This document shows, piece after piece, positions 24,240 to 53,644 of a DNA stretch of 64,000 nucleotides (within the stretch, counting starts at the first letter, position 1; the number at the start of each line of letters is the position of its first letter). The stretch covers positions 34,782,001-34,846,000 of the forward strand of contig CM060732.1 of the NCBI GenBank assembly GCA_030704615.1. The letters run 5' to 3'. Under the pieces are notes generated by a model. It saw nothing but the letters and a program-made list of their open reading frames with translations, made no database searches and was not told where the DNA came from. The translations under genes and the position numbers were made by a program. This DNA comes from Takakia lepidozioides. Lineage: Eukaryota; Plantae; Bryophyta.

Positions 24240-24915
24240 ATGCTCTTCTGGCTCTTCTAGGCATGTGAAGATGCTTTGTGAGGTAGGCAGACTGAAAGAG
24301 GCTCTACAGACTTTAAGCAAAGAGCATTTCAGCAGATTCAGATATGTATGTACGTCTCTTGCTTCAGTACATCAAGATGAAAGGTCTGGAAGCTGGAAAG
24401 CAGGTGCACACCCACATTATCCAAGTTGGATTCATGATGCCAAGTGTTTTCCCCCTCAACACCCTTGTCAACATGTATGGTAAGTGTGGGAGCATCATGC
24501 ATGCTCACCAAGTGTTCAACGGAATGCCTCAACGATCTTTGATCACGTGGAATACAATGTTGGCAGGATTTACCAAGCATGGGTATGGTAGGAATGCTTG
24601 GAGACATATGATCAAATGTTGCGCGAAGGGGTGAAGCCCAACCACATCACATTTGTTTGTGTTTGAAATGTGTGCGCAAGCCTAGGAGCCTTGTAAAAGG
24701 GGAAAGAGGTCCATGGCGACATCTTCAGAGCTGGAATTGTACCAATGTCATTCTGAACAGTACCCTGGTGGACATGTATGCAAAATGTGGGTGCATCGAG
24801 GATGCAAAGGGAGTGTTCAACACTATGGCTGAATGAGATGTGGTGTTGTGGAGTGCGATGCTTGCAGGGTATACACATCAGGGACGTGGATGGAGGCTTT
24901 GGAGACCTATGATCC
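24240..24915 (+). pseudogene. PLS-class PPR pseudogene, N-terminal repeats
   Basis: [50 protein letters not shown], with stops and frameshifts. It is a close paralogue of 54082-55002. A further small PPR fragment lies at ~23350-23420. Confidence 0.9.
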
Positions 24916-25873: not shown

Positions 25874-28800
25874 CACTACAGCAAATGGGGGGGGGGGTTT
25901 TGCGACGCCAGCCGCGACCCCACGCCCCGCGCGGCGCCGAGCGTGCGACACCAACCCCGCAGGCCGCCACCTGGTGCTGGGGCCAGGCGGCGACGCCGGG
26001 CCGTCGCACGGAGTGATGGAGGGCAAATGGCAGCCCTTCCGTGCGACGCCCTAGCGAAGGGCAGAAGGCAGCCCTTTCGGGCGACAGCCGCTCGTCGCAC
26101 GCCGGAAAAAAAAAAAAACCCTTCTTTCATCGCAGCCCTTTCTTGCGACGCCAGGCCGTCGCATGGTGCCATGAAGGGCAAAAGGCCCCTGTGACGGCGG
26201 GCGTCGCAAACTGCCCGGCTGCCCTATTTTTGCAAAAAAAAAAAAAATTGGGTCACAGTGTGCAACGGCTGGCCGTCGCCGTGTGCGACCCCCGGCCTCA
26301 TAAATCCATTAAAAAAAACTGGTCGCAGATGGCGACGATTGGCCGTCGCCGTTTGCAACCCCAGGCCTAAAAAACTCGTCGCAGGTGGCGACGCGTGGGG
26401 GTCGCAGGCAGCGACGGCAGGGCTTTCTAGGTTTAGGTTTAGGGCCTTTGGGGGTTCTTAGTTTTTTTTTTTTTTCATATGGTACTAGGGTAGGGTGTTT
26501 GTTTTTCTTTATGGTTTAGCTTGTTGTTGTGGACCTTCTTGTAGATTGTGACATTCATTTTTATAATTCTCTTGATACCACATCTGTATGTGTTGCTCCA
26601 ACATATTCATTGCCTCTGCCTTCTTTCTTGAAAGACTACCAGCCACAACCATATTTGATGAATCATAGAAATAAACTACAATATGCATGTACATGTACAA
26701 TCAATCGAAGGGATGGGTCATGTTTGGTGCGAGAATTGTTATGTAGCTTTGATTTTGTGTCTAATCAATTTGAACATCATCATCCGGAGCCTCTTCATCC
26801 TCATCAAGCTGCAAGTCTTCTTGGTCATCGGAGTCATCGTCATAAATGGCCCGGCCCTCAAAAGGCACCTCCGAATCATCCTCCACCTTGTTGTCAATGG
26901 CCGTGTCTTCGTCTCCTTCTCCAACATCTGTATCTTCTCGAGCTTCATCATATAGGGTCCAGGATGCATTGTCCGGGGCGTCATCATCATCTTCTACCCC
27001 CTCTACCCAACCTCCATCATCAGCATCATTATGATCAGTCTCTCCGTCCACCGTAATTGCCTCACCCCATAGAGATCTGAGACCATGATAGATACGTCTT
27101 CTTCTTGGCTGAGCATGCACAACCACCTTCCAATTCCCCCCTCTTGTTTCGTCATCGGAGAAAAAAACTTGCTCCATGTCTAAAGGCCGTGAAAAAGGCT
27201 CATAGGAGGGACGATGAGTAGGGTTGAGCCTTTCTGCATTGACGCGCATGAAACCACAATCATCTTGCACTAGTGTTGCGGAGGGCCCCACAAGATGTGG
27301 CTGGAACCACCTTCCTTTGAAGAGAAGAGGCCGGTACCTTGTATACTGAAGTTGGAGTATGTTCTCAAGCTCTCCAATGTACTCAAGTTTGCTCATAGCA
27401 GGTCGTGTATCTCCCTTGCCCCACATGAAATCTTGCCAATATGTGGCACACAAGCCAGAATCAAAGGTTGTTTTGCGCTTCATGTCAAGAGCACGAATGC
27501 GGAAATGACGACCATGAACCCAAACCGCCGTGTATGAGGTCGCGAATTGAGAGGGGCCCCTTGCAATGTCTTGCACCAAATCTGAAACCACCTCTCCTTG
27601 AGCAACGGAAGTTTGAAGCCACTGTTGGAATGAACTTAGAGGCTGCAATTCCATGGGCAAATTTTGTGAAGGAACATTTCGGCGGCCCGCTCCTCGTCGT
27701 GGGCGTCTAGTAACTGGCCTTGGATGGTTCCGCCTCCATGCAAGCGTCTCCTCCTCTCGTTGCTAAACAAGATTATTGTATCTTGTCTCCCACTCATGTA
27801 TGGATGGGGTGTTCTTCAGTATGAAGTCATGCGCTTGCTCAATCACCAAGGTCGGCAATTTTACCCTCTTCGATTTTTTGGGCAAAACGATGTCATTGGT
27901 TCGTGCATCCTCCTCTTCCTTCCACATCCGAGGGGCTTCCTCATCCACCCTTGTCATGTACTCTGTGCAATTGAACATAGCTTCTGTATACCCCTCCGCC
28001 ATGCTACCCTCCGGGTGCGCCATTTGTTTTACAAATCCTTTCAAAGTCTTCATATAACGCTCAAGGAAGTACATCCACCGAGAATGAACGGGGCCGGCAA
28101 TCGAAGCCTCTTCCACTAAGTGCACTACCAAGTGCACTTGGATGTCAAAGAAGGAGGGAGGAAGGTGCATCTCTAACATACACATTACCTCCGCCGCCTC
28201 CTTCTTCATGCGTGGAAAATCTGCTTCTTCCAACTCTTTGAAGCAAATCCACCGGAACAAGCCTCCCAATCTATAGATTGTCTCATGAGCCTCGGGAGTC
28301 AATGTCCCACGTACTGCAATGGGCAAAATGTTTTGAAATAGATTGTGGCAGTCATGAGACTTCAAACCATGGACCCGTCTTCTTTGCTGAACTTCGTACG
28401 GAGGGATGACCCATAACCAGTTGGTGTTTGGACATCACTTATGGTGGCTATCACTTTTGTATTCCTCCTTTGTCCATTGCCAAAGTGCGCGCCTATACTT
28501 CCACCGTACAATACCCTTTGGGTCCACACCATTTTGTTCGGCCCATAGATGGCGCATGCGACCCTGCTCCTCAAACTCCTTTCTAACACCGAGAGAATCT
28601 CCTTTTGCAGCCACTCCCTTCTTTGCCGGCGTGCCATGAAGAACCCGAAAAAGGGACGAGCAGACATTCTTCTCAAATATGCATGGGATCTAGAAGATGA
28701 CAAATCTTCAGGTCCTACATATATCCCCACCCACAAAGATTTACACAAAATTTTTTACGTGAAAGTGACAATGCAACGCATACCAAATGTGCAATATCAC

Positions 28801-31800: not shown

Positions 31801-33640
31801 TGACCCATTGAATCAACTTGGTTCAAGCTCATATTTGGTCCACATATACATAAGTATGTTTAGATCACATATGCAAAGTTGCAACCCACACGAGCAACAA
31901 GAAAAAAATTTACATCAATCGATTAATCGGATGTATACAAAGTACATCATGAGAATATCTACAATGTCCCTCTACGTGATCCCTGTCTCAAAGGAACCCT
32001 ATTTCTATCATACACATCCCACTCACGCTGTAATCGGAAATCCCAATCATCATGGGAGAACTCGTATGATGCAAATAGTTCGCTGCCAGCCCTAATAGTC
32101 CTACTAACACATGTCCTCACAAACATGTACATCCCCTCACAGTATATTGACGTATGACCACAAACGCTCTCATGCCCATCGCTTCGCTCGTCCCTTACTA
32201 CATTGGTTCTCCTAGGATGACCAAAAGAACTATTGACCAGCCTAGCAACATTGCCGAAGATGTCGGGGTCACCATCACAAAATCTGATCTCAATGGGAGA
32301 CAACCCTCGTCTACGTACATCCGGTCCGTTGACACACAAAATGTATGGTAGGATGTATGGGGCTTCGAGGCGTAATATACGGAACTCCGCGGAGGTGTAG
32401 TATGGACCATAGTAGGGAAACAAGTCCACCATGCTGTTTCTCCGAGGAAGAACCATAATATCATTGACCGTGAATAAACCCCGACCCATAACAGGGTCTG
32501 TAGCGGCTCTCACAACATACCGTCTCCCCCAATACTCGAACTCCACATTTTCTCGGAGGGGGGTGGGAGGGTCGAGATGATTCCCCCAACAACGAGGCTG
32601 GACGGTCCTCAGTAACATAGTCCTATGCGCTTCCCATCGGGGGCGAGGATCCGGCTCAGGCTGCCCAAGCCAAAAGGGAGGAAACCTAGGGCGAAGCCGA
32701 CCCCTCCTAGGGGTTCGGGGGGCACATGCACGTGGAGGTGGAGGTGGAGGTGGTGGTGGGTGGAGGTGGTATGCTGGCGGAGGAGATGAAGGTGGAGGTG
32801 GTTGAGGATGTAATGTCGGAGGTGCAGCCGGGGGTACAACCAGAGGTGGATCAGGCAAAGAAACAGACGAGGGGGGGAGGCCACAATCAGGGGGACCGCC
32901 TGAGGAAACTGGAGGGGGGGGCCTACTCGTCGCCGGCCATAACGCCTACGACACCTACGATACCCCTCGACCCTACGCATCTCATCTATGTGTTGCTGGG
33001 GGAACCAACTGGTCACATCGGGCACATGCTCTGGCACAAATTCTGCAAGTAGACCGGCGCGAAATGCCTCATGTGCAATGTGATTGCGAGCTTGGGCATC
33101 AAGTCGTGGCTGCAATGTGCGTAGTGAACGACGCATCAATACTTATGTCGTAATTTTGATTCATGTATGTTTACCAATCATACTATATTATTAGATAAAC
33201 CTAAATGTACCTTAAATGAATGTTAATGAGAGGGGTGGGAAAAACACTCACCTTTGCCGTTCTTCTTGTAATGTTTTTCGACAACATGCGGTCGCCGCCT
33301 CGGTGGTCTGGTGCCGCCCGGCGGTATCCGTTCCCAACACTTAGTGCACCAACACTCAATCCTGTCGAGGGGGTCAAAGGTGGACGTGGTTGGACAGGGT
33401 GGCCCGCGAGGGGGCAACCCGCGGCGCGCCCGACTCGATCCGGAGTGTCAACATCCTCCACATCACCTGAAATTTGGCCCCGGTCCCTTCTACGATTGTG
33501 CCTGGCAGCCTGTATTGGATCAGGTGCAATGGGTGCCTCCTCGCCACGAAAAATGGTCGCTCTAGGGCCACAATCGATATGTGGTACTACCTCCCCATCC
33601 TCGAGGGAGACGGGTCGATGTTTCCTCACCATCCCATCCT
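25874..33640 (-). mobile_element. CACTA/EnSpm transposon with intron-containing TnpD-like transposase; far end not found
   Basis: CACTACAGCAAAT terminus at 25874, followed by GCGACG/CGTCGC subterminal repeats to ~26420. DUF4216-like 26761-27660, DUF4218-like (MKSHDCH..PPSFFDIQVHL..RWMYFLERYM) 27763-28365, Transposase_21-like (YFPIIPRL, DSQAW, SDGVNPF) 28360-30035, and an N-terminal CWCTKC..H exon at ~33252-33632. Confidence 0.92.
31959..33139 (-). CDS. Proline-rich SET-domain-like protein (putative lysine methyltransferase) inside the CACTA element
   Basis: ORF 31959-32858 has SET motifs in the expected order: MGRGLFT, FPYYGP, DGD..FGNVARLVNSS (cf. GNxxRFINHS) and RTIRAGSELFASY (cf. RDIxxGEELxxDY). 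The upstream overlapping ORF 32609-33139 is probably joined across a poly-C frameshift. Confidence 0.75.
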
Positions 33641-36600
33641 AATTAACACACACCACCAACACTTTCATTTCTCAAAAACCGTTGGCAAAAAAACCTATGC
33701 CTCAGCCTCGGGGCTTTCAAAATTGGTAACCAAAGGCGGAGCATCCCTATGGTGCTAGAGACAATAAATCCTTCCTCTCGTTCTATCTTCAGGATGCTTA
33801 TACTATGGAAAAATTTGTTGAGACCCAGCGCTTTGCGATTATCAGATTGAACCACATTTTGGGTATGTGAATCCTAATTACACCGTTTATCCTTTTAACC
33901 CCAAGACCCACAACCAAAACCGCCAATCCAAAACCCAGCACCATAAAGAAAAGCAAACACCACAATGTTAATATCAACCCCATTTGTAGCCACCAAGGCT
34001 CTCAGTGCTGCAACCATCCAGCCTAATGTTATCAGTTGTCATCACCTGCCATGAGCTCCAGCAAAGGCAACCAACATACCTTTCCGTTGTTTCAAGCCAA
34101 CATTAAGAGAGGAAAGCGTTGAGGTAATAAATTGATGGATAGGAAGAAATATTACCTCTTGTTCTGAATGGTGTACTTTGCCAGGTGAGGAATGTTTGCT
34201 CTCCATATTGTGGGTGCCCTTTGGAGTGGGGACATCTTCACCACCATCAGACGACAGCTGCTGGGCTCTGCCACCTATTTTCCTCTTTGCACCCCCCCCC
34301 ACCCTTACCCTTTCCTCCCTGACAACTCTCCCCTTGTGCAAGATGACCTTCCAAAGCAGTTGCAGATGAGGAAAGGTTCAGAGTCTGCCCTGCTTTCAAC
34401 TTCACCAGGACCCCGCCTCTTTTTTTACCTTTTTCCTTAGCTCCTCTCTTCACCCTCTTGTTGCTGTCCATCTCTGGGACCTTTTCCTCACATTGTGAAC
34501 TAGAATCTTTGGATTTACTGGGATCATCAGACGCTGTATGTGTCCCACCAGGCGTTGCGCGTGCCACTTCACTTTCCCCAGAGCATTTTGTAAGGGCTTC
34601 TCCCGTTTCCTTGCCTCCTCCCTTCATCCCCTTGCTACTCTCCAGCTGTACAACCTCTACTTCATGTTCTGAACCACACTCCTTGGACTCGAGCGGAATT
34701 ACTTTGTGTTGGGTGGCTCGGCAAGGCCCCCAGCAGGTGATCCCCCCCCCTCTTCTGCATCTTTAAATGCAGATCCTAGACTCTTCCTAGAAATAGTTGA
34801 GGCAGAGGGTAATTTACGGGTGTCTGTAGGAGCTTCTTGCCCATGGGGAGGCGACGCTTTAAGAACCATGGCAGCATCACTCATTGCTTTGAGCACCAAC
34901 GCCATCATGTCCTTAACCTCTCGTCGACTCTCAACTATCTATGCTGACATGTCATTCAGCCGTGAATCCACTCCACTTCTCCAACTGGTGATTCCCTCCA
35001 GCTGCTGTGACAGCGCACTCCCGGACCCCTGCAGACATCCCAACGTCATCAGCAATAGAACCTGCATGTGGTTTGCCCAAAGAGAAATAGAGAGTAGAGA
35101 CAGAGGGAAAAACAAAACACATGAAGAGACTTCCACAAGTTCCCAAGGGCTCAGGTTGCACAGTACAACAACAGGGACCACATGTCAAAGAGGCACCAAA
35201 AACCAGGCAAAGCCGACATTGTATCTTTGACAATTATTCAGCAACGGCCACGAATGATGGTCAGCAGCCATGGCCACCAATGAAGAGACATGTACAAATG
35301 AATGCAACTGCATTCGAGTATGTAAAATAACCAGCCTTGCCACGACCTTATAAATAAACTCTTAACCCCTTGTTTCCATGACTTCCAACCTCCCAGCACT
35401 CAAACATCGACGAGAACAAGAACAGCTGCTACTCTGGGTGATGTGCCATTCATGATGAAGCCAAAACTAAATCCACACGTTTCTCCCCTTCAGCTGCAGC
35501 TCGTGTTCAATCACGACAACAATATGATACCTATTCAGCTCATGGTTAGTCATTACAAGCAGCAACAACAAATAAATATCAAAACGACACAAACAGCTAC
35601 TACACCTAATGGAAACCCATCTTTAAAGAACCAAAAAAAAGCGTACGGATTAAGTGTGACCCAAGGGGTTACTGAAGCTCAGGCAATCCAGTTTTGGTAT
35701 GGAATTCTGGACAAGGAGCTCAAGAGAAGGGTGCGAGATGCAACCCTGTTACAAGCAGCCCAACCCACATTAGCAGATGTGTTTCTGCTGGCTGAGCGGA
35801 TTGAGCTCAACATGGTGGGGGAGCGAGTTGTTACAATTGGATTTGGCAAGGACATGCCTGTACGGGGCACAGCTGTCAGCCCACAAGCACAAGGGACTGC
35901 CCAACAGCGTGGTCAGGGGGGCAAGGTTGCCCAGCCCAAGTTCCATGGAGCTTACAGGGGGCCTCAGGTGCAGAGGCCCGTGGCATCTTTTGCAGGCCAA
36001 CAGCAACCAGGGGTGATATGTTGGACATGTGGAGGACCCCATGTCAAGAGAGATTGCCCAGAGAGTGGCAGAAGGCCGGCACAAGCACAGCCTGCACAGT
36101 TGCAGTGTGGGCATTGTGGCAAGTATGGGCATGGAGATGCCCAGTGTTATGACTTGCATCCTGAGTTGCGCCTAGGCCAGTTCCAAGGGAACAATGGTGG
36201 CCGGGGGCGAGGTGGACCAGCCCAGAGAGGACGAGGTGGTCGGGCACGAGGTGCAGGCCAAGGGCAAGCTCAACATGGCCAAGGACGCTTAGGTCAGGGC
36301 GTTGATCAAGGCATGGCCAACCGGCTTCAGCAGCTAGAGCAGAGGCTCGCTGCCATGGCTATAGGTCAGGCGGTACCGGCTCCCAGGCGGGATGGTCCAC
36401 CTCCTGCTCCTGAGGGAGGAGATATGGGAGGCATGGGATTTATGTGCGGAGAGCAGCACTACCACTAGAGCAGGTGGAGTCTGCTGCAGCCGTGACTCGA
36501 GGAGCAGCACGAGTTCCTGAGCCACGAGGTGCAGAGGTGGAATTGGATCCACAGCGTGGGGAGGCAAGCCGTCAGGCAAGGCTTCCTCAGTCATTCACAT

Positions 36601-37809
36601 TGGCGGAGACTGTGTCGACGCCATCCATGGCACCTAGTTCGCCCGACTGTTACCGAGGCGGAGGTTACTATGCCATTGGGGAGAGCTACACGTGCAGCAT
36701 TGACTCCTGCTGCCAAGGCTAGTGCGGCCGGTGTGTTATTGGGGGCAGCCACCTCTGTGTGTCAGGCCCCACTGTTCTCAACAACAATGATTGCGACGCC
36801 GGGGGTGAGACCAGCTGCAGTGTTCAGACTAGCAGCAACACTCTGTGAGAGTGGGGAGGTCACTTCATCTTCTGCGGAGTTAGTGGAAGGTGTAGTGGCA
36901 GAGGGATCCTCGGATTTGAGGGTCAAGACTGCCACGGCTGCGCCATGGCAAGTTGCAGCTGCCAGGTTGACGGAGCTGCCAGCTAGGCCAGCCATTGAGC
37001 GCGCCATGGTAACACCTGGAGTTGTCTTGTTAGACAACCAGGGAGGCATTTTCACTTTGAGTGGACCGGCAGGCAAGAAGTACCGGCCACTGCGGGTCTT
37101 GTTGGACTCAGGAGCTCAGCCACTGATGTTGGGCAGAGCTGCTATTGCAGGTTTGGGCCTCATGGAGGCGGATATGGAGCCTTGTCCTTTCCAGATACAG
37201 ACATCTCTGGGAGGATCAGAGCAGGCTGCGGCATGACACGGCATCAGTTGGCTATTAGACTGCAGCCGGATCATCCTGTAGATGGCTCAGTGATGCGAGC
37301 CAAGGCCATTGTGACAGACGCGGTCTCTTACGATGTCCTCGTTGGTGGGGCAGTGTTATACCCCATGGGCTTCACCCTGGATTTCTGGGAGGAGTCAGCA
37401 TCCTACAGGCCTGGATGGCAGTCAGGGGATGGTCGCCGTGCACAGCTCCCTGTGACATTCATTGGGGGTATTGCAGCTGCCCAGCGGGGCAAGATGCCAA
37501 CACTAGCCGCCTTCACAGCTGCGTTAGTTGGCCTGGAGAGTTGCTGGAAGGCAATGCCCATGCAGAGGATGTGCCACCTCCAGCAGAGCAGGATGACATG
37601 CATGGTACGGCAGAGTTGCCTGCCATGGTTGCTCACACCCGTTGTGGGGTACGAGCAAGGATTTGCAGCAAGCTGCTGATGGACGGGTGCAACAAGCTTG
37701 GGAAGAAGTTTTTGTACCGTCAGGAGAGGGAGGAGAGAGTGCGGTGATTGCACCAGGGCCACCTCAGTTGTCGCCATTGGACACCACACCTCTTGTGTGG
37801 AAGCGGCCG

Positions 37810-38790
37810 GATGAAGGCATTTGCCTTCTGGACTTGTTTGGCGGGATCAGCACCGGATTGGCTGCTGTGCTACAGGCAGGTGTGCGGGTAAGGCGTTACC
37901 TGTATGTGGAGAGGGATGAGACTGCATGACGCGTCTCACTGCGCCATGTGCTCAGTTGGTACAGCAGTACCCTGACTTGTTGCCTGTGTCTGCAGTTCGT
38001 GGATACCAACAAGCCTTGCCAGCAGACATTCTTGTTGGGGCGCAAGATTTGGAGCAGGTTGGCTCCATTGATCTGATAGTGGCAGGTTGGCCCTGCCAAG
38101 GGCATTCATCAGCCGGGCATGGCAATGGATTGCGAGACTCGAGGACGGGTCTGTTTTGGGAGATGGTGCGGATTTTGCGCTGCTTGCAGCTTCATCAAGC
38201 TGTATCTCCAGCATACATCTTGGAGAATGTACCACTGATGGGTGATTCTCGGGCCAGGGTGATGGCCAGTGTGCATCAAGTCCGGTCGTGGCTTAGGTCA
38301 GCAGTGTTGCTGGATGCAGCTGCAGTGGGGTCACGGGCTCATCGTCCACGACTATGGTGGACTAACTTGATGCCACCCGCACTGCTCAAGCGTGCATTTG
38401 ATGGGGTGCAGCGGCCAGCACACCTCACCGTGGATGGCATTTTGGACACAGGAAGGCAGTCTCAACGTGTGAGACACGATGACCGTTTGCCTTTGGCAGT
38501 GGTCAACAGGGTGGGTCAACCACGAGCAGCATTACCTACACTGCTCAGCTTCCCAGGATCCCATGCTTTTCGGGATGGTGGACCTGGCCTCCTGTGGATG
38601 CTCAGTTGCAGCAGTTAGTGGAGCCTAATGCCGACGAGCGAGAGCGGGCTATGGGGTTTTCCACTGGGACCACGGCGGTGCCTTCTCTTTCTGAGGCATC
38701 ACGTCGTCAGGTGTTGGGGCAAGCAATGGATCTCAATTGCTTGACCTGGATTGTCAGCTTGGCTATGGCTGAGCAACGTAGAGTGCGGAG
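37810..38790 (+). pseudogene. C5-cytosine DNA methyltransferase domain (DNMT3-like) within Gypsy pol
   Basis: Motif I LLDLFGGISTGL, IV AGWPCQ, VI YILENV, VIII AHRPRLWWTNL, IX ERERAMGF, X RQVLGQAM. There is a premature TGA at 37927 and frameshifts near 37945 and 38600. Confidence 0.92.
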
Positions 38791-41504
38791 TACACTTCCC
38801 TTGACGGTCTCTCTGCCTACCGAGACGGTACAGGCAGCGAGTGGGGGCGAGCCGGTGAGGACCACGAGGTGTAGACATCCATGGCACATGTGGGAGGTGC
38901 TCGAGGTTCAGAGAGGAGTTGGCAGCGAAGCAGCTGTGATGGATGAGGTTGGGGATTCTTCTCGGGATGAGGAGGTTCTCAATGATGAGATGATGGGGCA
39001 GGATGAGGCCTTGTCATTGACTGAGCAGGAAGGGGGTACTGCTCAAGAGGTTGCAGCATAGCAACCACGGGACGCGTCCTCACCTCTAAGCCCACTGGAC
39101 TTAAGGTTGCAGTTACGGAGGACAATTGGGAGCCTGACATTGGACCCATTGTCACCGGAGGAGAGAGAGACGACATATAGGGCGGTTCCTGAGGGCTTAC
39201 AGGAATTGCTTTGCCTTCAGTTTGAAGGACTTGGGAGCACTGAAGGGTCAAGAGATCCGTATTGAGTTGGCCACTGACACGCCAATCTTTCGGAGACCCT
39301 ATAGATACAGTGACATGGAGAGGTCTTTGATTCAGATGAGGACTCAAGATCTCTGGGAGGTAGGTTTGGTGGAGCTCTCTGGTGGAGTGTATGCTTCAGC
39401 CACAGTGATGCCAGCTAAGAAGGATGTCTATGGCAATTGGACGGAGAGACGTATGTGCGGTGATTACCGGCCTGTAAATCGTCAGACCAAGTCCGATAGG
39501 TATGCCATGCCAACACCAGAGGAGATCTTTGATGCCATTGGGCATTCCAAGGTCTTTAGCACGTTGGATTTACGATCCGGATATCACCAGTTGCCGATCA
39601 AGGAGGCGGATAAGCAAAAGACGGCATTCTGGGGGATCAATGAGCACGGGAAGGATTGCCTATACCAGTGGCGGTTCTTACCATTTGGGCTTAAAAACGC
39701 CCGCTGAGTTTCAAAGAGTCATGGACAGGATTCTAGCAGGGGTGGAGTTTGCTCGGTGCTACATAGATGACATCATCATCTTTAGTGCTACGGTGGAGGA
39801 GCATGAGAGACACCTTCAGGGGGTATTTGAGCGCTTGAGGACGCACGGATTGAAGTTACATCCGGGCAAGTGCAAGTTTTTCCACAACCAGATTGAGTAT
39901 CTGGGTCACATGATATATCCTGGAGGATTGGGGGTACAGCAGACAGGTAAGGTAGAGTCCATTGCACAGGTTCCACGCCCCACGGATGTGAGCCGAGTTC
40001 GAGCTTTCATGGGGTTAGCAAACTATTACAGACGGTTTGTTAAGGGATTTAGTGCCATTGCAAAGGCTCTAACCAAGCTGACCAAGGTGGACCAGGAGTG
40101 GCAGTGGGAAGATGAGCAAGAACAAGCTTTTCAAGAGCTCAAGGCGAGGTTGACCTCGGCGCCCATCTTGAGACGACCTATCAGGGGGCGTCCTTTTCAG
40201 CTGCATACAGATTGGAGCATGTTGGGGCTTGGAGCGGTGCTCACACAGGTGGATGATGAGGGAAGAGAGTTCGTAGTGGCTTATGCTAGCCGCTCGAACA
40301 ATGCTGCAGAGTCTAAGTATAGCTCATATGAGGGAGAATGCTTAGCTGCAGTGTGGGCCGTGGCACACTTCAGGTGCTATTTATACGGCAATCTCTTCAC
40401 CCTTGTCACGGATCACCAACCACTCAAGTGGTTGATGGAGTCAGACAAGCTTACGGGGAAGCTTGCACGGTGGGCACTCATCCTTCAAGAGTATGACTTT
40501 CAGGTGGTGCATCGACCGGGTTTGGTCAATTGAAATGCAGGGTTGAGTCGTAATCCATGCACGAGCCAGCAGGATGACACTGGAGCTCGGTGGCATGGTG
40601 AGACGGACGAGGAGATGGTGCCCGGATGGCATGCATCTGCATTTCTGTGTATCTTGGCAGCGGAAGGCCAGGTTGGACCTACAATAGGGATGACTGTAGA
40701 TCAAGTGTCTGAGGACCCTGAGGCCAGCAATGAGCAGGGTGGCGCCAAAGATATACATGAGGTTAGTTGTGTTGGACTACCTCCGCAGTGGAGACACGGC
40801 AGCCACTGTGACTGCCAAGGAGAGGGATCGGATCCTACAACGAGCCAGGAGGTTCAAGTGGGAGGGGACACACCTGCTCCGAGTGTGGGAGGATGGTCGA
40901 GTGAGGATTGTGCCTCACCCAACACAGCGGGCACGGTTAGTGCGGCATGCCCACGAGGAGTTGGGGCATTTTGGGGTGCGACGCACCATAGCCTACTGCA
41001 GGGGCAGTATTGGTGGCGTGGTATGCACACAGAGGTCCAACAATTTGTGGCTAGGTGCATGGTGTGTGACAGGGTGCGTGCTTCATTCAACGCCCCTACT
41101 CCACAATTGCACCCTCTTCCGATCATGGGATTGGGCTACAGGTGGAGTCTTGACTTCGCAGGGCCGTTGCCACTGACCATGCGCCACAACAAGTACGTGT
41201 TGGTGATGGTGGAGCACTTCTCCAAGTGGATTGAATTGGTTCCATTGCCTGATAAGGCTAGTGAGGGAGCTGCGTATGCATTCTTGGATTGTGTGCTTAG
41301 CCGATTCGGTGCTCCGGCTGAGGTACTCACGGACCAAGGGAGAGAGTTCTTGGGGGAGTTTCAGGCTTTGTGTGACAAGGCCTTGATAGACCACCGCACC
41401 ACTTCTCAGGATCATCCTGAGGCCGATGGCTTGGCAGAGAGAGTTGTCCAGACAGTAAAGAGGGGTTTGCGCAAGTATGGCTTGCAGAAGGGACACCTAG
41501 GAGA

Positions 41505-42620
41505 TTGGGACCTTCAGTTACCCTGGTTAGCCATGGGCTACAGGTTCAGGTATGGGGCGATGCTGCTTTTAACCTACCTAGGACTCCTGCTGCACGGGAG
41601 TACAGTCGGGCTATGATTATGCCCTTCAACCAAATTCCCATTGTGCTGGATTTGGCTTGGAAGGAATTTAGTCCTCCGCAGTCATTGGCACATTACTACC
41701 AGATCATGCGCATTTGGTTGCCGGTGGCAACTCGGACTAAGGTTCTTCCAAACAATCGACCCATTGAGGATCATCACTTTGCGAGGTACTGGTTTGAGGC
41801 AGGTACCATGCTGAAGGAATTAATTGCCTTCCAGGTTGTACATGGGTACATCTATACCAAGACCAAAGAGGTATCTAGTATTGTCATGGGCTGTGGATTA
41901 TACTATGTTGCTAGTTTTTGGGCACGTTATCACATTGAGCAGCAAAAGATGCAATCACGATTTCTGAGTTATTCCAGTGGGGATCATTGGGTCTTACCTT
42001 TAGTGCCACCTCATATGTACCTATACGATGCAAAAGTTATGATGCAGAAAGATTCCCAACTTCGTTCATGGTTTAATTCGGCTTGGAACAATTTGACAAC
42101 ACAGAAATTTGGCCCTGAGGATATTTTCTTTAAGGGACATGAAGCCTGGAAATACTTACACTGTTCCAAAGTCATTGGCACACCTCTCACCTATACGGAT
42201 AAGGAGTTCAGGGCGTTCACTAATTTTGCTTGCAAGCGCTTAAAGCAAGTTGTACAATTTAAACTTCCAGACATGGTGGGATCATATTGTATGCCACACA
42301 GGATTCCACTTAAAGTTCGGCCGTTAAAACACCTAAGGGGGGACGAGGATTCTGATACTACTGTTTCTTCAGAGGACTCTTTTGACATGACAGAGGACTA
42401 TGCACTTCAGATGGCAGAGAAGAAACGACGGGGAATTCCTATGCCTGAGAGGTTACCTCATTATCAGCCAAAGGAGGGTCAGACATTTCCAGGTAGTGCT
42501 CAATCATCTCCATCAGCCAGTGACAGGACTCGGGCTCGCACATGGAGTCCTTCACGAGACTCTCACCGTCAGAAGGGTGCTCGCTCACAAAGGTTGCTAA
42601 TCCCAAACAGTAAACCGTGA
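41505..42620 (+). CDS. Extra ORF of unknown function in the 3' region of the Gypsy-DNMT element
   Basis: Uninterrupted 371-codon ORF between the truncated integrase and the PPT. No motif recognised. Confidence 0.5.
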   Translation: MGPSVTLVSHGLQVQVWGDAAFNLPRTPAAREYSRAMIMPFNQIPIVLDLAWKEFSPPQSLAHYYQIMRIWLPVATRTKVLPNNRPIEDHHFARYWFEAGTMLKELIAFQVVHGYIYTKTKEVSSIVMGCGLYYVASFWARYHIEQQKMQSRFLSYSSGDHWVLPLVPPHMYLYDAKVMMQKDSQLRSWFNSAWNNLTTQKFGPEDIFFKGHEAWKYLHCSKVIGTPLTYTDKEFRAFTNFACKRLKQVVQFKLPDMVGSYCMPHRIPLKVRPLKHLRGDEDSDTTVSSEDSFDMTEDYALQMAEKKRRGIPMPERLPHYQPKEGQTFPGSAQSSPSASDRTRARTWSPSRDSHRQKGARSQRLLIPNSKP

Positions 42621-42634
42621 GGACACGGCTTTTT

Positions 42635-42651
42635 GAGAGGGGGAGGGGGAA
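42635..42651 (+). promoter_or_regulatory. Polypurine tract
   Basis: gagagggggagggggaa immediately precedes the LTR start TGTTAG at 42652. Confidence 0.9.
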
Positions 42652-43980
42652 TGTTAGAGGGCTGCTTGGGACTTAGACGCTTTTATGGGTTCTGTGGGGT
42701 ACCCTTAATTTTTGCGCAGACTGAGACCAACAGGAGCCTTAAGGGTGGTAGGAGCAGGCTTTAGGGGGGTTACGGCAGCCCGAAAGCTTCGCAAGCCAGT
42801 CACAGGTCACAGCAGTCACAGCTGACAAGCTTCACACAGCCCGACACAGCTTTACACAGCACTAGAAGAGAAACCGGCTTTTTCCATGCTCTGCCATCTC
42901 ACACCTGGCATATTCCACGCTTTTATCACAGGGTCTGTAGAGTGAGCAAGGTGTGTGGGTCAAAATATGCCCTAATGTGGGATGTCTCAACTGTGATCCA
43001 CACCCGAGCCAAGAACGATGTGAAAACAGCCATGAGCTTGGCGGGAGTTGGCTTAGTTTACATGGCATGTTACACACATGTGTGAAATGGGACCATAGAA
43101 TTTCCACATGTGGGTGTAGGGAGTTTGAGAAATGATGCCCTTGGAAAATGATCATGAGTTTCATGTTCATGTTTAGCCATCTGCACGATGGGCTACTAGC
43201 AAGCGAAGAATCACCCCCTGCTACACCCCATTTTCAATCTCTACATTAGAAGTCTATAATGCCCTTGGTGAAATGAGCATGGGGATCACATCAAAGGTGG
43301 CCCTGTTCCGTTGCAACCTATGACACAACTAGGACAAACAAGCATAGGCATGATTTACATTTTTTGCCACAAATCACTTGCATCATCTCGAAAAAATCTA
43401 TAGAATTTTAATAAGAGACCAAAAAGGAAACCCAGGTCTAGGTGGGTAGCATAGTGAGTTTCTATACAAGGTGATTTATTTTAAATTGTAAGTGGTTTCA
43501 ACAACTTCATTAGCAACTCCACAATTATATTTTAAATTCATGTAAATTGAAATATATAAATCAGTATTAGATAGAAATAGTTGTTTTAACTACTCATTTC
43601 ATGACTATGAACCTTACCCAGTAAATAAATTAACCAGGGCCCTTTGTACCTTGTTATATATATACGTTTTGCACCCTAACATATATATATATATATATAT
43701 ATAGCTAAAAATACCTTCACATAATTACATGGACCATATAATTATTTTATATAATATTAGGATGCAAAACATTCAAAAACTTCAAAAGTTGGCTCGAATT
43801 TAGGGCTGCTAGGTCACGATGTGCAGGGCTGGGACTTAGCGTTTTTTGGGGTCCGGTCTTTCTTAGTGCCAAGCATCGTGATAGCAGGAACTCGAGGCCA
43901 ATGTGGTGAGGGCACATTCTTCTTCGACCTATTTCAGCATGTTTTGCCCTCTCATCAGACTCGGCCTTGAATTTGCAGCA

Positions 43981-44725
43981 CTGAGCAGAGTTGGCATGAG
44001 TTTTACCCTTCACGATGGTGGGACAACAGCCATGAGTTTTCCAAGGATGCGAAGGGTGTGTTCGACGAAATGGCTGCCAAGATGTCGTGTCGTGGAATGC
44101 AATGATCGCAGTGTGGTACGAAGGCTTTGGAGACATATGAGGAAATTATGCCAGACAGGTTGAACCCTAATGCATGATGTGTTTCAATTTCTGCCCGCTC
44201 AACTGCACCGTGGTGGTTCTCATTGACCAATCCGATATTGCCAGACTACAGACCAAGCAGCAGACACAAGAGGTCCTCTTGGGTTCATGGTCAGTCAAAT
44301 CCTCCATGGGTCATGACACAAGGTCGAGGACAATGTGGTGAGGGCACTTTCTTCTTCGACCTATTTCAGCCTGTTTTGCCCTCTCATCAGACTCGGCCCT
44401 GAATTTGCAGCACGGAGCAGAGCTGGCATGAGTTTCTTCACGATGGTGGGACAATCGCAATCGCAAAGTGTGGCTTTTTCTTAATGTAGGATGTAAAGAA
44501 GTTTGTCCATCCTACAAATGTGGGCTTTTGGCTCCTGTTAGTACCATGATGTACCCAATGTCATTCTGAACACTGCCCTGGTGGATTGCATTTATGCCAA
44601 ATATGGGTGCATCAAGGATGCAAAGGAAGTGGTTCGACAGTATGCTGAACGAGATGTGGTGTCGTGGAGTGCGATGATTGCAAGATATGCACAGCAAGGG
44701 CGCGGATGGAGGCTTTGGAGACCGG
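43981..44725 (+). pseudogene. Captured OSB-like motif and PPR fragments
   Basis: WHEF..SRWWDN at ~43990 and ~44423, each followed by PPR pieces (DAKGVFDEM..VSWNAMI, and VILNTALVD..DVVSWSAMIA). 44180-44545 closely resembles parts of 23680-24175. Confidence 0.8.
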
Positions 44726-44924
44726 GAAGGGGTGATTCCCCATGGAAAAATAGATAGAGCTGTAATGATAGAGTGAGGCATTAAGCAAGCTTTGGATGGC
44801 ACAGACATGAGAGCATAGGTACTAAAAGGTAGTAGGAACTGGGAATATGTCTACATTACAGAGCGTAACTTTATAGGCAAGAGAAAATGGTCACAAGCTT
44901 GTAAGATGAGTGCTTCAATCTGTT

Positions 44925-45055
44925 CTTATACAAGGTTCTCCTCAGTTTTATGACAGTCTGTTCGCTGGCTTTCTGGTTGCAGGGAACCCTTGGGTGTTGA
45001 TTTCGTGCTCCACGTCAGCACAATGGCCAAGGTCGGCTTTGTTCATGATGGCCTT
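44925..45055 (-). pseudogene. Degenerate Gypsy RT N-terminal fragment
   Basis: The minus strand reads ADLGHCADVEHEINTQGFPATRKPANRLS, typical of the segment preceding Gypsy RT. Confidence 0.45.
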
Positions 45056-46976
45056 CCAGGGCTTTTGGTGGTGGAGAGGACCTGACCAAGGGCTATGTTG
45101 TGGCAGTACCACCAACTCAGTCATAGATTTTCAAGCCTATCTGCAGCTTGTGGATTCCAAGCCCATTATGCTCTACAATCCACTCCCAGAACCAAATTTG
45201 TCAAGGACAAATTCAAGCGTTGCTATCTCCAAGTTGTTATGGGCCAAGCCAACCTCGGCGACATTAGCCAGATCTTTGAACGGTATCACACTAACTCTCA
45301 GGAAAGAACGCCACAAATTTGGGCTTACATTTTCATTGATCAACCCTCTCAAACACCTTTTGGTGGCCATAATGTGATCATCTCAAAGACAACATGTGAA
45401 CACAAGGGTTGCAAGCGGCTTGAATCCCTGACGAATGTTGCCAAATTGTTGGAAAAGGCTGGGTGTCATCAGGAGGCAGTCTTAAAATTGCTTCAGGCTC
45501 TGTGGTTGATGATGCTATGAGGCAATGGCAACACGGAATGGCATCTCAGGCCTTCTAATGAGGCCCTTGGGGTGCTGCAGGAAACTCAATCCCTGATACA
45601 AAGAGAAGGGATCAGCATTGATGTTGTATTATTGCATGAACTCCAACTTCTGCAATCAGTGAGATCTGGCACATTCCATGTAGACAAGGAGAACTGGGAA
45701 AAGGCAAAGACACCAAAACCATTCAGGCTTAGGCTGATCTCATGCCATCAGGCTGCCCCATATGCTAGCCAGATTTCTAGACCGGTGGAGGCACAACGCA
45801 ACGCACAAGCTCTCACTTATCAGGGTTTCAAATTAACTAAGCTGTGTCATGGTCTCTTTGAGGAGGTTGTTTCTCCCTGCGCCACTGCATGTATTGGGCG
45901 TATGAAGATGTGTGCAGGTTAGGGCAATTTTGTTGCTCTGTCAAATTTCACCACGCGTTGGCTGGTAGTTTTTCCCTCAACTCCGAGTTTGACAAACTAA
46001 GCACCCCGGGTATGGAAGCATTGGCGAGTGGGCTGCCATTCTTTTCCCTGCCACTAAGGCTGATCGACTGGGGTTGAGTATATATGGTGGGTGGGCTTTG
46101 ATGTTGCTTGGGACTCTCAACTTCACAGATTCAGGCTGCCCAACCTCTGTACCTGGTCTCTTTCTTCGGATGGTGTCTGGTACTGTGACCTCTTTACTTC
46201 ACCTCCTGTTTATGATGTATACTCAATGGCACATGCCCCTGTTCTTGGATCAACAGTATACTTCTGATCATTTTACTCTCATGCACATGCCCGCTTTCCA
46301 AATGTACATGCCACACTCCCCCCTCTATTTGATAAAAATCCAAGGAAATCTGTACATGCTCTTTATGTTGTCTTGTTCTATGATTTCGTTATCTCACTTC
46401 CATCCTATGATATGTATTTAGATATACATGCCCCGGTTCTTGGATCAACACTCAGTATCTTATTTTTACATACTTATCTCAAGTCTACTTACCAAATGGC
46501 GCATGTTATCAATTGCTGTACCAGTAATTACTATAACCATGCTGACAACATTCTATGTCTCCAACCTATGCACCCTAAGGCACATGCGCCTGCCACACCA
46601 TACAGGAACTCGGACTTATGATTATGAGCACTAACAATATATGTACATTTCCACTATGCTTAAGACAACAGGTTGCTGCTCACCATCTCAAAACATCCAC
46701 AACAATGACAGACCAAGGACTCTCACATTATGAAAACACCAGAATGCAGGTCAGGTTACATATCTATACTCTCCCCACTTCGTCTCAAGTGATATCCAAC
46801 TACAAGCGACCATGGTGAAGCAGCTCATTGAATCTCCCAGGTACCATTCCCCCTCTATGAACTTGTGTTCTTTTCAATGCCATGTCATTTCACTCTGTTT
46901 TCCCCTCTTATTAGAATCACCCTAAATTTTCATGTTTCAAGAATTATGCAAGTTAGCTGGTTGAGTGAACCTTTGA

Positions 46977-47548
46977 TAGTTTGGAGTGACTTTGACATGA
47001 TGCTGCCAAAGTGACAACAGGAAAGTATCCAGAAATAGGTAACATAGAGGAGAAGCTGTGGAATGAATACTTTTCTGACCCCAGTCAATGGTGGGACAAC
47101 CGTCTTGGAAGGTAGATGCCTTTGGATTACAGAGTGGTAAATGTAATTGAGAATAGGAACTGGTGTGATAAGTTGAGTTGGGTGCTTGCTAGAACAAATC
47201 TAGGCTGCCATTGTCAGCTGCTAACATCAATGCAAGGATGTATGCATGATCTGTGCAGAGGCATGGATAGCTGAAGGAGCAGGGATAGAGTGTCATCCAA
47301 GAGGGCCGGATTTCAAGCTCCAGATTACTTTTGATTCCCTGTGGAAGGATAGCTACAAGAAACCTGCATGGGTAGATGGTACATAGTTTGGAGTGATTTT
47401 GACATGATACTGCCAAAGTGACAATAGGAAAGTATCCAGAAACATGTAACAGAGATGAGGAGAAGTTGTGGAATGAATGTTTTTCTGACCCCAGTCAAGG
47501 GTGGGACAACCGAGGGAAAAAGGTGAATGTCTATTAGATTACAGAGAG
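46977..47548 (+). repeat. Two copies of a ~160-bp segment encoding an OSB-like PDF-motif exon
   Basis: EEKLWNEYFSDPSQWWDNRLG|gt at ~47047-47111 and EEKLWNECFSDPSQGWDNRGKK|gt at ~47457-47522. Confidence 0.8.
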
Positions 47549-48889
47549 TAGGAGACGCAACTCAGCATAGACACTAAGGCAAACTCTCCTTCCCTGCAAA
47601 AGGTGTGTTTTGGTATCTGAGCGAATAAATATAGTTTTTAAAAACATAATTTCAATATTTTGTTATTTAATAATGTTCTCATCAAGGCCACTGTCCATTT
47701 TCCCTATAATAATAATAATAATAACAATAAATTAAATCCATTAATATTCAAACTTAATATTGGAAATCCATTAATAATTAATTAATGCGTACCACCACAC
47801 AAGAACGAACACGTGTTGCATAATGACTTGTCGAAGGTGTGAAATATGACACGTGTCGCATAGTGGCTTGTTCAAGGTGCGAAATCCGCCGTGAAACATG
47901 CCACACTGGCCTTTTTCACACTCTGCCATGTCAGCTATGCCATCGGCCATGTCAGCAGCCATGTCACCATGCACCCCGTGAAAAAAGCCTCCCGTGGAAA
48001 AAGCCTCCCGTGGACTTTTCCACAGGGCCACCCGAGAGCCAGACTGTCCACGGGGTGTCCGAAAGCACTAGTCGTTTCTTACACCCACGGCAGGTGTGGA
48101 CTGCGGCTGATTCCACAGCAAAAAATATGGAAAAAGCCGTGGAAAAAGCCGGTTTCTCTTCTAGTGCAGCCCGACACAGCTTCGCACAACTAGTCACAGC
48201 CCGACACAGCTTTACACAGTCAGTCACAGCTCGGCACAGCTTGACACAGCCTGTCTCAGTACATGGGGAACAATTATCATTGACAGGGAACGACTGTGAG
48301 GGAACGACATCTGCAAAGGGAACGTGTTACTTCAGGGGTGACGGTTAGTTAGTTAGGTGGTTAGAACAGCTTGCGGATAGATTAGGAGAGCGGCAACGGG
48401 AAGGGGATCACTGGGAAGAAGATGGCGACTTGTTCAGGAGAGGAAGAGACGTAACGGAGAGCGGGGAAACAGTGTAGAGGAGATGATGACTTGAATGAGG
48501 CTTAGTTCATGCAAGCTGTAGAATTATACAGTAGGATAGAATAGAGACACCATGGCATAGGCATGATACATGATTAATCTTAATCCGATACTGAATCGAT
48601 ACAAACATACTGTGAAGAGAGACACGAGAGAAGCTGTGGAATGAATGCATGATTAATTGGAACTTAGTAGATACTGAAGCAATTTGATGCTTCAGTATAC
48701 ACGGTAAGGTAAATTGATAACATGAAGGCAGGAAGGAATACAAATAGGAAGCATAACCATGATTCACTAGCTGCAGGTCATGACTGATTGTTCTGAGCAG
48801 GCTGAGTGCTTAGAGATATCCAACTCTTCTATCTTGGAGTTTCCATCTCGGATAGCGAAGGGATGGGTGAGTAAAAGCCGCTCAACATT

Positions 48890-48907
48890 TCCCCAGTATG
48901 GTCGCCA
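48890..48907 (-). promoter_or_regulatory. Primer-binding site (tRNA-Arg-like)
   Basis: TGGCGACCATACTGGGGA begins 2 nt after the LTR end and resembles the complement of plant tRNA-Arg 3' ends (..GUCGCCA). Confidence 0.7.
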
Positions 48908-48909
48908 AA

Positions 48910-49793
48910 TGTCGAGCGGCTTTTACTCACCCATCCCTTCGCTATCCGAGGTGGAAACTCCAAGATAGAAGAGTTGGATATCTCTAAGCACTCAGCCCGC
49001 TTAGAACAATCAGTCATGACGTGCAGCTCGTGAATCATGGTTGTGCTTCCTATTTGTATTCATTCCTACCTTCATGTTATCAATTTACCTTATCGTGTAT
49101 ACTGAAGCATCAGATTGCTTCAGTATCTACTAAATTCTAGTTAATCATGCATTCATTCCACAGCTTCTCTCGTGTCTCTCTTCACAGTATGTTTGTATCG
49201 ATTTAGTATCGGATTAAGATTAATCATGTATCATGCCTATGCCATGGTGTCTCTATTCTATCCTACTGTATAATTCTACAGCTTGCATGAACTAAGCCTC
49301 ATTCAAGTCATCATCTCCTCTACACTGTTTCCCCGCTCTCCGTTACGTCTCTTCCTCTCCTGAACAAGTCGCCCTCTTCTCCCCAGTGATCCCCTTCCCG
49401 TTGCCACTCTCCTAATCTACCCGCAAGCTGTTCTAACCACCTAACTAAATAACCGTCACCCCTGAAGTAACACGTTCCCTCTGCAGATGTCGTTCCTTTA
49501 CAGTCGTTCCCTGTCAATGATAACTATTCCCCATGTACTGAGACAGGTTGTGTCAAGCTGTGCCGAGCTGTGACTGGTTGTGTAAAGCTGTGTCGGGCTG
49601 TGTGAAGCTGTGTCGGGCTGTGACTGGCTGTGCGAAGCTGTGTCGGGCTGTGTGAAGATGTGTCGGGCTGTGTAACCCCCCTAAAGCCTGCTCTTGCCAC
49701 CCCTAAGGCTCCTGTTGGTCTCAGTCTGCGCAAAAATTAAGGGTACCCCACAGAACCCATAAAAGCGTCTAAGTCCCAAGCAGCCCTCTAACA
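48910..49793 (-). mobile_element. Second LTR (884 bp) of the Gypsy-DNMT family, inverted, with adjacent PBS
   Basis: Near-identical to the reverse complement of 42652-42859 plus 48170-48887. TG..CA ends; followed on the minus strand by TT-TGGCGACCATACTGGGGA. Confidence 0.93.
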
Positions 49794-50490
49794 GATGTGT
49801 CACCTCTGGGAGAGCAGGATGACATGTATGGTATGGCGGAGTTGCCTGCCATGGTTGCTCACACTCCATTGTGGGGCTCGAGCAAGGATTTGCAGCGGGT
49901 TGCTGATCGACAGGTGCAACAAGCCTGGGAAGAGGCTTTTGTACCGTTATGAGAGGAGGACAGTGCGTGGATTGCACCAGGACCACCTCAGTTGTCACCA
50001 TTGGACACCACACCGATCATGTGGCAGTGTCCGGATGAAGGCATTTGCCTTTTGGACTTGTTTGGCGGGATCAGCACCGGATTGGCTGCTGTTCTATAGG
50101 CAGGTATACGGGTACGGCGTTACCTGTATGGGAGAGGGATGAGACTGCACGACGCGTCTCCCTACGCCGTGTTGCTCAGTTGGTGCAGTAGTACCCTGAG
50201 TTGTTGCCGGTGTCTGCAGTTAGTGGATATCAGCAGGCCTTTCTAGCAGACATTTCGTTGCTGGGGGCGCAGGATTTGGATCGGGTTGGCTCCATTGATT
50301 TGGTAGTGGCAGGTTGGCCCTGCCAAGGGCATTCATCAGCTGGGCATGGCAATGGATTGCGAGACTCGAGGTCGGGTCTGTTTTGGGAGATGGTGCGGGT
50401 TTTGCGCCACTTACAGCTTTATCAGGCTGTATCTCTAGCATACATCTTGGAGAATGTGTCACTAATGGGCGATTCTCGGGCCAGGGTGAT
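49794..50490 (+). pseudogene. Second fragment of Gypsy-DNMT pol (DNMT motifs I-VI)
   Basis: Paralogous to 37568-38262: DLFGGISTGL, VAGWPCQGHS, YILENV. Confidence 0.92.
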
Positions 50491-52870: not shown

Positions 52871-53096
52871 AATGATAATGAAAATGCTGCTGCAAGCATG
52901 GCATTCCACAACTCCCAATCTCGTTGAGCCATATTGTTTAACACTCCCACACTTGGCATACATGTCCACGAGGGTATTGTTCATGGTACAATTCCATCTT
53001 TGGTGATGCAACCATGCACCTCTTTGCCCTTTTCCAGGGCTGCCAGGCTTCGACACGAACTACAAACGCACACAAACGTGATGTGCTCGGGCTTCA

Positions 53097-53443
53097 CCCC
53101 TGCCCCCATCAATTGCTCTCTCTCAGCTGCCTAGTAGAATATGCATATGAAAAACTTTTAAAGATACCATGTACTAACCAGCACTTTCTTGCTTCCACTG
53201 TCTTGAATATTCCACCCCTGCCCCATCAATTGCTCTCTCTCAACTGCTTAGAATATGCATATGAAAAACTTTTAAAGATACCATGTACTAACCAGCACTT
53301 TCTTGCTTCCACTGTCTTGAATATTCCACCCCTGCCCCCATCAATTGCTCTCTCTCAGCTGCCTAGAATATGCATATGAAAAACTTTTAAAGATACCATG
53401 TACTAACCAGCACTTTCTTGCTTCCACTGTCTTGAATATTCCA
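53097..53443. repeat. Tandem repeat, ~115-118-bp unit, 3 copies
   Basis: cccctgccccatcaattgctctctctca...gaatatgcatatgaaaaacttttaaagataccatgtactaaccagcac...gaatattcca at ~53097, 53215 and 53329. Confidence 0.95.
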
Positions 53444-53644
53444 TTCATTTAGATCCGGCTAAAGTGCCTCGTAAGCAGCTGGAAAGTAACTTCAAGCTCC
53501 CTTTCTCAAGCAGCACTTTCAACATTATGACTAGATCCGCTTGCATGCATACAATGCTTGGTAATTCCATGACCAATCCTAATGGGATGTAGAGATTCCG
53601 AAGCCCCCCTCCCCTCACTTATGGAACAAGGTATCTTCAACCCA

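Follow-up and report, generated by a model that had tools for sequence, protein, structure and literature searches.

A DNMT3-like cytosine methyltransferase on the Gag side of a conserved, likely leaky stop codon in a land-plant Ty3/Gypsy retrotransposon lineage

Cytosine methyltransferases carried by retrotransposons have been described from several element classes, the closest to the one reported here being KnitGypsy-Dnmt3 of Klebsormidium nitens, in which repeats of the DIRS type accompany Gypsy domains (de Mendoza et al. 2018, PMC5890265). As described there, its methyltransferase lies in the Pol open reading frame (ORF) with reverse transcriptase (RT) and RNase H (PMC5890265). SymbioDIRS-Dnmt3 and the EpiLTRs are likewise retrotransposons with cytosine methyltransferases, but they belong to other element classes. 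SymbioDIRS-Dnmt3 is described as methylating CG de novo in yeast (PMC5890265), and the EpiLTR methyltransferases are reported as sister to DNMT4 and located at the 3' end of pol in Cymbomonas (bioRxiv 10.64898/2026.05.21.726589). That 2026 preprint cites the streptophyte Gypsy-DNMT3, and the accessible text of a 2025 survey repeats "streptophytes and dinoflagellates" as the carriers (PMC12344493). In the open-access literature searched, which includes few subscription papers and makes any absence a weak one, the element family is described only from Klebsormidium. Here we analyze a 64,000-nucleotide stretch of the moss Takakia lepidozioides (GCA_030704615.1, contig CM060732.1, positions 34,782,001 to 34,846,000, forward strand; hereafter the window), which contains a decayed Ty3/Gypsy element with a DNMT3-like methyltransferase. 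In the clade of this element, the methyltransferase is separated from RT by a conserved in-frame stop codon that is likely leaky.

Motif and Pfam searches place gag, protease, C5 methyltransferase, RT, RNase H, and integrase in this order on the + strand of the window, as a preliminary description of this DNA had proposed. The C-terminal half of gag (35650-36468), with CCHC knuckles at 36019 and 36106, begins at residue 182 of the Marchantia protein P0006 and is followed by a spacer and aspartic protease (36471-37463; LLDSG at 37099) broken by frame changes. The methyltransferase occupies 37810-38752, and all six motifs claimed for it were located between 37834 and 38730 in the unpermuted order I, IV, VI, VIII, IX, X: LFGG (37834), WPCQG (38088), LENV (38220), HRPR (38340), ERAMGF (38642), and LGQAM (38714). 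The family-conserved stop with its readthrough-type context (39059-39067) precedes RT (YIDD at 39760) and RNase H (39186-40530), and then the integrase zinc finger and core (40745-41549), whose C-terminus and PHD finger are missing beyond 41549. Pfam recovers PF00145, the family suggested for checking, at E 4.2e-13, RVT_1 at 5e-16, RT_RNaseH at 1e-36, rve at 5e-14, and Integrase_H2C2 at 6.5e-7; the protease match is weak (E 0.084) and reaches 2e-4 in an intact relative, locus L024. The window copy is dead and rearranged: its frame changes at least nine times, and premature stops stand at 37927 and 40531. Two of the frame changes and one of the stops lie within the methyltransferase. At 49794-50490 (+) there is a second, partial copy of the methyltransferase (motifs I, IV, and VI), with 88% identity.

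The methyltransferase belongs to the retrotransposon family and is not a secondary insertion. Among 80 metagenome loci, the best of 383 confirmed related loci, RT follows the methyltransferase within 1.5 kb in 61, RNase H precedes it in 3, and neither is found in 16. The preliminary description had named copies lacking the domain, or a separate insertion of it, as findings that would speak against its reading; neither is what we found, since other copies carry the domain, RT follows it in these 61 loci, it holds the same place, and its tree agrees with that of RT. A 5009-nt contig from a second organism is collinear with the window over methyltransferase, RT, and integrase. In run X1, possibly from the same sample as the window, summed depth, which is not a copy number, reaches 0.7-1.1 million over the methyltransferase and about 1.05-1.1 million over RT-RNase H, with 531-604 in three flank bins, so that the methyltransferase is as repeated as RT. 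A middle piece of the domain matches 53 longer proteins, the top ones at 66-69% identity including Marchantia and Calypogeia, with Sphagnum lower. P0006 (Mp4g09160) heads a cluster of 18 proteins, several with ORFs of about 1280 residues, and a profile search with the domain gives 521 representatives with E of 1e-30 or lower. In the Atlas, the Marchantia domain matched generic PF00145 clusters, those of streptophytes ahead of those of phages; in viral contigs, none of four pattern matches was confirmed.

Phylogenetic trees point to long joint residence, and substitution rates to purifying selection. In the methyltransferase tree, the window domain falls in a clade with liverwort and Sphagnum-like sequences (support 1.0); this tree was built from 14 loci, three phage rows, the window, and 77 database domains, which remained of 223 classed ones once redundant entries had been filtered out and 40 of the unnamed chlorophyte-type rows had been drawn at random. 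Gene models P0008 and P0012 were left out of it. In the RT tree, which used 28 of 51 RT rows, the window's clade (clade A, as distinct from its sister, group B) forms one clade (99/98), and the window RT is sister to L072 and the Marchantia and Sphagnum-like RTs (95/91). Methyltransferase and RT distances among 48 elements are correlated (Spearman 0.565; 0 of 999 permutations), which argues only for long joint residence because kin share both. The ratio of nonsynonymous to synonymous substitution (dN/dS) in the methyltransferase is 0.125 (L024/L027) and 0.119 (L024/L025), compared with 0.127 in the protease and 0.04 in RT. It is 0.075 and 0.092, near saturation, between the window and Sphagnum-like loci. 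The two window copies give 0.31 when compared with each other, and a pair of decayed Sphagnum-like copies gives 0.75. By these ratios, the methyltransferase is under purifying selection.

A single continuous pol ORF, which the preliminary description had envisaged, is not what clade A contains, since a conserved in-frame stop splits gag-protease-methyltransferase from RT-RNase H-integrase; the methyltransferase is therefore part of the Gag-side protein. In the window, the stop at 39059 reads TAG CAA CCA, and a later frame change hides the frame downstream of it. The evidence for conservation comes from loci of other organisms. We compared 61 linkers between methyltransferase and RT, 25 from clade A and 36 from the sister group. 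A stop occupies the equivalent place in all 25 clade-A loci, and 24 of them keep both CAR-YY and the frame with RT, the remaining one being a single change off; in 21 of the 25, the reading frame continues unchanged through the stop. Some of these loci are probably the same copy assembled twice, and the 25 amount to four lineages, to which the window adds, because 20 of them are one Sphagnum-like family, in which 19 have TAG or TAA followed by CAA CCC (one CTC). The others read TAG CAA CTA (L072 and L073), TAG CAG TTA (L024 and L025), and TAG CAA TCA (L027), giving an exact CAR YYA in these five and in the window. UAG-CAR-YYA is the type I (tobamovirus) readthrough motif, whose six bases after the stop are reported to suffice (PMC3542737).

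Intact copies show the same layout. In L024, a 1369-residue ORF1 encoding gag, protease, and methyltransferase ends at TAG CAG TTA and is followed in the same frame by a 1047-residue ORF2 encoding RT, RNase H, integrase, and a PHD finger. Among database proteins with protease and methyltransferase but without RT, 41 of 51 end 55-200 residues past the domain, the distance being 88 residues in the intact Marchantia ORFs. We considered recurrent CAG-to-TAG decay as the source of the stop and rejected it, as intact L024, L027, and L072 carry the stop between long open frames. No RNA fold beyond that of dinucleotide-block shuffles follows the stop in any of six sequences (z -1.21 to +0.85). The context resembles type I readthrough in the window, L024, L025, L027, L072, and L073, which have the same nine-base context without a downstream fold, but here it stands in a retrotransposon, downstream of a protease and a methyltransferase. 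It also differs from gammaretroviruses, for which the stop is described between gag and pol and accompanied by a pseudoknot (PMC3542737; PMC5009743). The clade-A stop is likely leaky, with RT-RNase H-integrase-PHD probably made by readthrough.

The enzyme itself is closest to DNMT3A/B in sequence and predicted fold, in line with the type first assigned to this element of a land plant. When the intact L024 domain was compared with solved sequences, the first 29 of 50 matches were DNMT3A, B, or C (best E 1e-7), followed by HaeIII and HhaI; DRM2 gave only a partial match, over residues 1-122 (E 0.085). Foldseek ranked DNMT3A first for the predicted L024 structure (E 1e-15). VIA-align gave DNMT3A a Z of 21.1 (root-mean-square deviation 2.8, 239 aligned residues) and DNMT3B 20.9, ahead of M.MpeI (18.1), DNMT2 (14.3-15.3), and DNMT1, ZMET2, and MET1 (about 13). 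All 41 clade-A proteins retain the catalytic PC and EN motifs. A phage origin of the methyltransferase is not favored, as the best phage enzymes match the domain at 23-31% identity, set against the structural preference for DNMT3. The domain shares an unpermuted, DNMT3-type catalytic region with the cellular DNMT3 of non-flowering streptophytes (PpDNMT3a/b, PMC6453930), which are described with a C-terminal DUF3444 (PMC6453930); here, in contrast, it is embedded in a gag-protease ORF, and Pfam finds neither DUF3444 nor a chromatin-targeting partner domain in P0006 or L024 ORF1.

Compared with the published description of KnitGypsy-Dnmt3, the clade-A elements share a Ty3/Gypsy order with a DDE integrase and an intronless, non-permuted, DNMT3-related domain under purifying selection. 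DIRS-like split repeats were seen in relatives, some of them in clade A, but not in the window. They differ in their land-plant host and in the stop that separates the methyltransferase from RT and RNase H. No Klebsormidium-named protein occurs among the matches listed for the domain. By sequence, clade A is a system that works like KnitGypsy-Dnmt3 and is probably related to it, but it lacks the single-ORF feature.

On balance, we lean toward the view that the element in the window is a decayed member of an ancient green-plant Ty3/Gypsy lineage that would produce its methyltransferase at Gag level by means of a leaky stop and would likely methylate its own cDNA. With good probability, most ribosomes would stop after the methyltransferase and few would read on to RT-RNase H-integrase-PHD; comparable low-rate extension is described in other gag-pol systems (PMC5009743). 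The enzyme is probably catalytically active in intact copies. It is reasonably likely, taking both steps together, that the ORF1 product would assemble a particle with about one methyltransferase per Gag and that the protease would free the enzyme. More tentatively, the main substrate could be new cDNA, so that insertions would arrive pre-marked; a CG preference is probable by analogy with DNMT3A and SymbioDIRS-Dnmt3. The PHD finger, which follows the integrase in 28 of the 32 loci having at least 700 nt past it, may guide integration. A PHD finger is also described in the polyprotein of another green-lineage Gypsy element, Chlamydomonas Gypsy-7a_cRei (PMC9940879), but no methyltransferase is among the domains listed for that element (PMC9940879).

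Several observations weigh against this view. The Sphagnum-like family is off consensus at the sixth base (CAA CCC), has an AUG three codons past the stop, and carries TAA in 5 of 20 loci. The sister group is without such a stop, since 11 of its 22 in-frame linkers are fully open and the motif occurs in none of the 10 tested out of 36; thus, not every carrier needs the enzyme at Gag level. In yeast, the Klebsormidium domain was without methylating activity, a result its authors called inconclusive (PMC5890265). Synonymous sites show a depletion of CG (0.23-0.81 of shuffles) but not of CHG. This does not indicate self-methylation, because the RT of another Gypsy family in the window is also at 0.50, nor does it tell self-methylation from methylation by the host. 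Moreover, the structural comparison uses a model of the L024 domain, not of the window copy, with a mean pLDDT of 74.7 and unreliable residues 220-258, and the methyltransferase tree is rooted on three phage enzymes, without cellular DNMT3.

Alternatively, the enzyme could be a nuclear one that acts in trans on host chromatin or on copies already integrated, and limit the family or reshape the host methylome, rather than serve mainly as a particle enzyme. Gag-level output would also give a large free enzyme pool, the PHD finger at the end of the integrase is a chromatin reader, and a host-benefit role is among the points discussed by de Mendoza et al. (PMC5890265). However, ORF1 has neither the targeting partner nor the DUF3444 looked for above, and selection along the element's own lineage would favor a cis effect on progeny, which together make this explanation unlikely. 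A lower probability falls to the idea that the domain is kept for nucleic-acid binding or for RNA methylation of the element rather than for DNA methylation. The inactivity of KnitGypsy-Dnmt3 in yeast agrees with it, as do the WEC that replaces WPC in some group B and chlorophyte copies and the one copy per Gag, which would exceed catalytic need; yet the catalytic motifs are all conserved, and fold and sequence are nearer to DNMT3 than to DNMT2.

The stop could also be a true termination signal, with RT-integrase produced by splicing, reinitiation, or a subgenomic RNA. This would suit the AUG three codons past the stop in the Sphagnum-like family and the Marchantia gene models P0008 and P0012, which join methyltransferase to RT. 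The first methionine after the stop, however, is at residue 3, 14, 48, or 117, with none in the window before its frame breaks, and no AUG position is common to clade A. Frame retention across the stop and a CAR-YY kept despite linkers of differing length and sequence, with L024 and L027 already at a synonymous distance of 0.8-1.5, make true termination improbable. An assembly artifact, or a host or bacterial gene for a methyltransferase that happened to insert into this single copy, is hardly conceivable and can be ruled out: the locus is heavily rearranged and phage enzymes do match the domain distantly, but the position is the same in 61 loci, on the second organism's contig, and in proteins of named bryophytes, and the methyltransferase and RT trees are congruent.

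Terminal repeats and algal relatives bear on where the enzyme came from. Of the 25 long loci examined, seven have split repeats of the form A1...B1-A2-B2, five of these with an exact 4-bp target duplication, and the B1/A2 joint motif is found in 18 of 80 loci from both groups, including L005, L017, L024, and L027 of clade A. Split repeats were not found in the window, where the element's own ends appear lost. The seven loci (L017, L041, L044, L051, L061, L064, and L078) are integrase-type elements with TGTCA...ACA ends and mostly a 4-bp target duplication; their internal B1/A2 joint resembles two ends joined two bases apart, and no TGG primer site follows A1. Elements of Tetradesmus, Hariotina, Haematococcus, and Chromochloris have a related methyltransferase after RNase H and next to the integrase (P0064, P0065, P0146, and P0152; L059, L071, and L077), an arrangement seen in 173 of 286 full-domain proteins. 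These chlorophyte elements fall outside the streptophyte-type groups in both the methyltransferase and RT trees (0.85 and 0.89), and no description of them was found in the literature searched. The preliminary description left open either descent from an algal lineage or independent capture. Independent capture by land plants now appears unlikely because the chlorophyte elements share the domain and the relatives share the split repeats described for Klebsormidium, which, compared by that published description, argue for common descent. The simplest reading of the sequences would be that the domain was captured once, long ago, and later changed its place in the element, with transfer between lineages as the alternative.

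The present arrangement of the window departs in part from the extent first proposed for the element, 35645-42859, of which the core stands. Residues 1-181 of Marchantia P0006 match 58419-58988, so that the N-terminal part of gag is displaced to 58197-58990 (+), complementary to the piece at 35650, where residue 182 onward begins. The gag halves thus break at adjoining residues and lie 22 kb apart on the same strand in reversed order, which two adjacent inversions or a misassembly would explain. An inverted leader-like stretch that weakly resembles the leader of L024 (E 0.10) adjoins 58990. Upstream of it is a minus-strand ORF of about 258 residues (59467-60243), possibly an extra 5' ORF of a retroelement; it has no Pfam family, and its best match among related loci is E 0.25.

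At the other end, the integrase stops at 41549, relatives continue past the equivalent point, and the second organism's contig runs on unmatched. The following segment (41550-42651, +) contains an ORF (335 residues tested, no family) and a polypurine tract. For this ORF, at 41613-42617, we found no Pfam family, no usable Atlas match, and no counterpart in the 80 related loci. The X1 summed depth drops from about 1.1 million to 0.36-0.51 million after 41549, and on the second organism's contig with the long terminal repeat (LTR) described next, 3.3 kb upstream lies outside the alignment to the element. Because of the unmatched ORF, which stands where most related loci have a PHD finger, the depth drop, this contig, and an LTR without the family's B1/A2 joint motif, we regard 41550-42859 (ORF, polypurine tract, and the beginning of the LTR) as the probable 3' end of a different Gypsy family, and 42859 is the insertion point of a CACTA-type element rather than an element end. 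The first part of this conventional LTR, with a TG start, is at 42652-42859 (+), and the remainder, with a CA end, at 48170-48887 (+); between them, the CACTA-type element (42860-48166) is inserted with a 3-bp duplication, CAG.

A second, inverted LTR (49793 to 48910) is followed by a stretch (48907 to 48891) that resembles a tRNA primer-binding site, together spanning 48891-49793 on the minus strand; 839 of its 884 aligned bases are identical to the first LTR. Two LTR copies thus stand tail to tail around a single primer-binding-site-like stretch at 48170-49793, with 724-nt arms that are 95% complementary. Remnants of another Gypsy element (gag and RT) lie at 18227-22152 (-) and a Copia-type gag-pre-integrase piece at 16060-16557 (+). 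An ORF at 31959-32945 (-), near CACTA transposase remnants (DUF4216/DUF4218 at 26761-28434), has SET-domain-like wording by eye, but neither Pfam nor solved structures bear this reading out. Several copies or fragments of PPR genes, with a period of 303 nt, occur at 1900-2670, 23360-24910, 44040-44720, and 52890-55053, one piece being within the CACTA element. Among their single alignments, the top six are all to the lycophyte Diphasiastrum, at 49-55% identity, and Sphagnum reaches 46-49%; the period fits the PLS class of land plants. These matches point to a seed-free land plant with no near relative among annotated genomes. No tRNA or Rfam match was found in the window.

Since 2018 it has been asked why a transposon would retain an enzyme of the very system by which it is silenced, and the literature searched reports no activity of a Gypsy-borne enzyme. 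In the open-access literature searched, we found no publication on six Marchantia gene ids or on a retrotransposon with readthrough and CARYYA. The accessible text of the REXdb paper contains neither "methyltransferase" nor "PHD" (PMC6317226), and no such element appears in the available parts of PMC11982613, PMC10952607, and PMC9940879. Two features are likely new: the absence of a continuous pol and the probable leaky-stop layout with a methyltransferase on the Gag side. The lineage is also extended to chlorophytes with a different domain order. The conserved stop leads to the prediction of far more methyltransferase than RT or integrase. Marchantia polymorpha has apparently intact gag-protease-methyltransferase ORFs, annotated as hypothetical genes, and with the existing methylation mutants they make the question testable in a land plant. 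Counts of bryophyte DNMT3 and de novo methylation phenotypes may include transposon-borne enzymes. In its fullest form, which we regard as speculative and unlikely to hold in every part, the proposal is that a green-plant retrotransposon lineage older than the divergence of chlorophytes and streptophytes writes its own 5-methylcytosine, that in land plants the enzyme moved to the Gag side of a leaky stop like that of plant viruses, and that particles with about one methyltransferase for every capsid protein deliver pre-methylated cDNA. If this were true, intact Marchantia copies such as Mp4g09160 and Mp5g06330 would be an unrecognized source of de novo methylation in a model plant.

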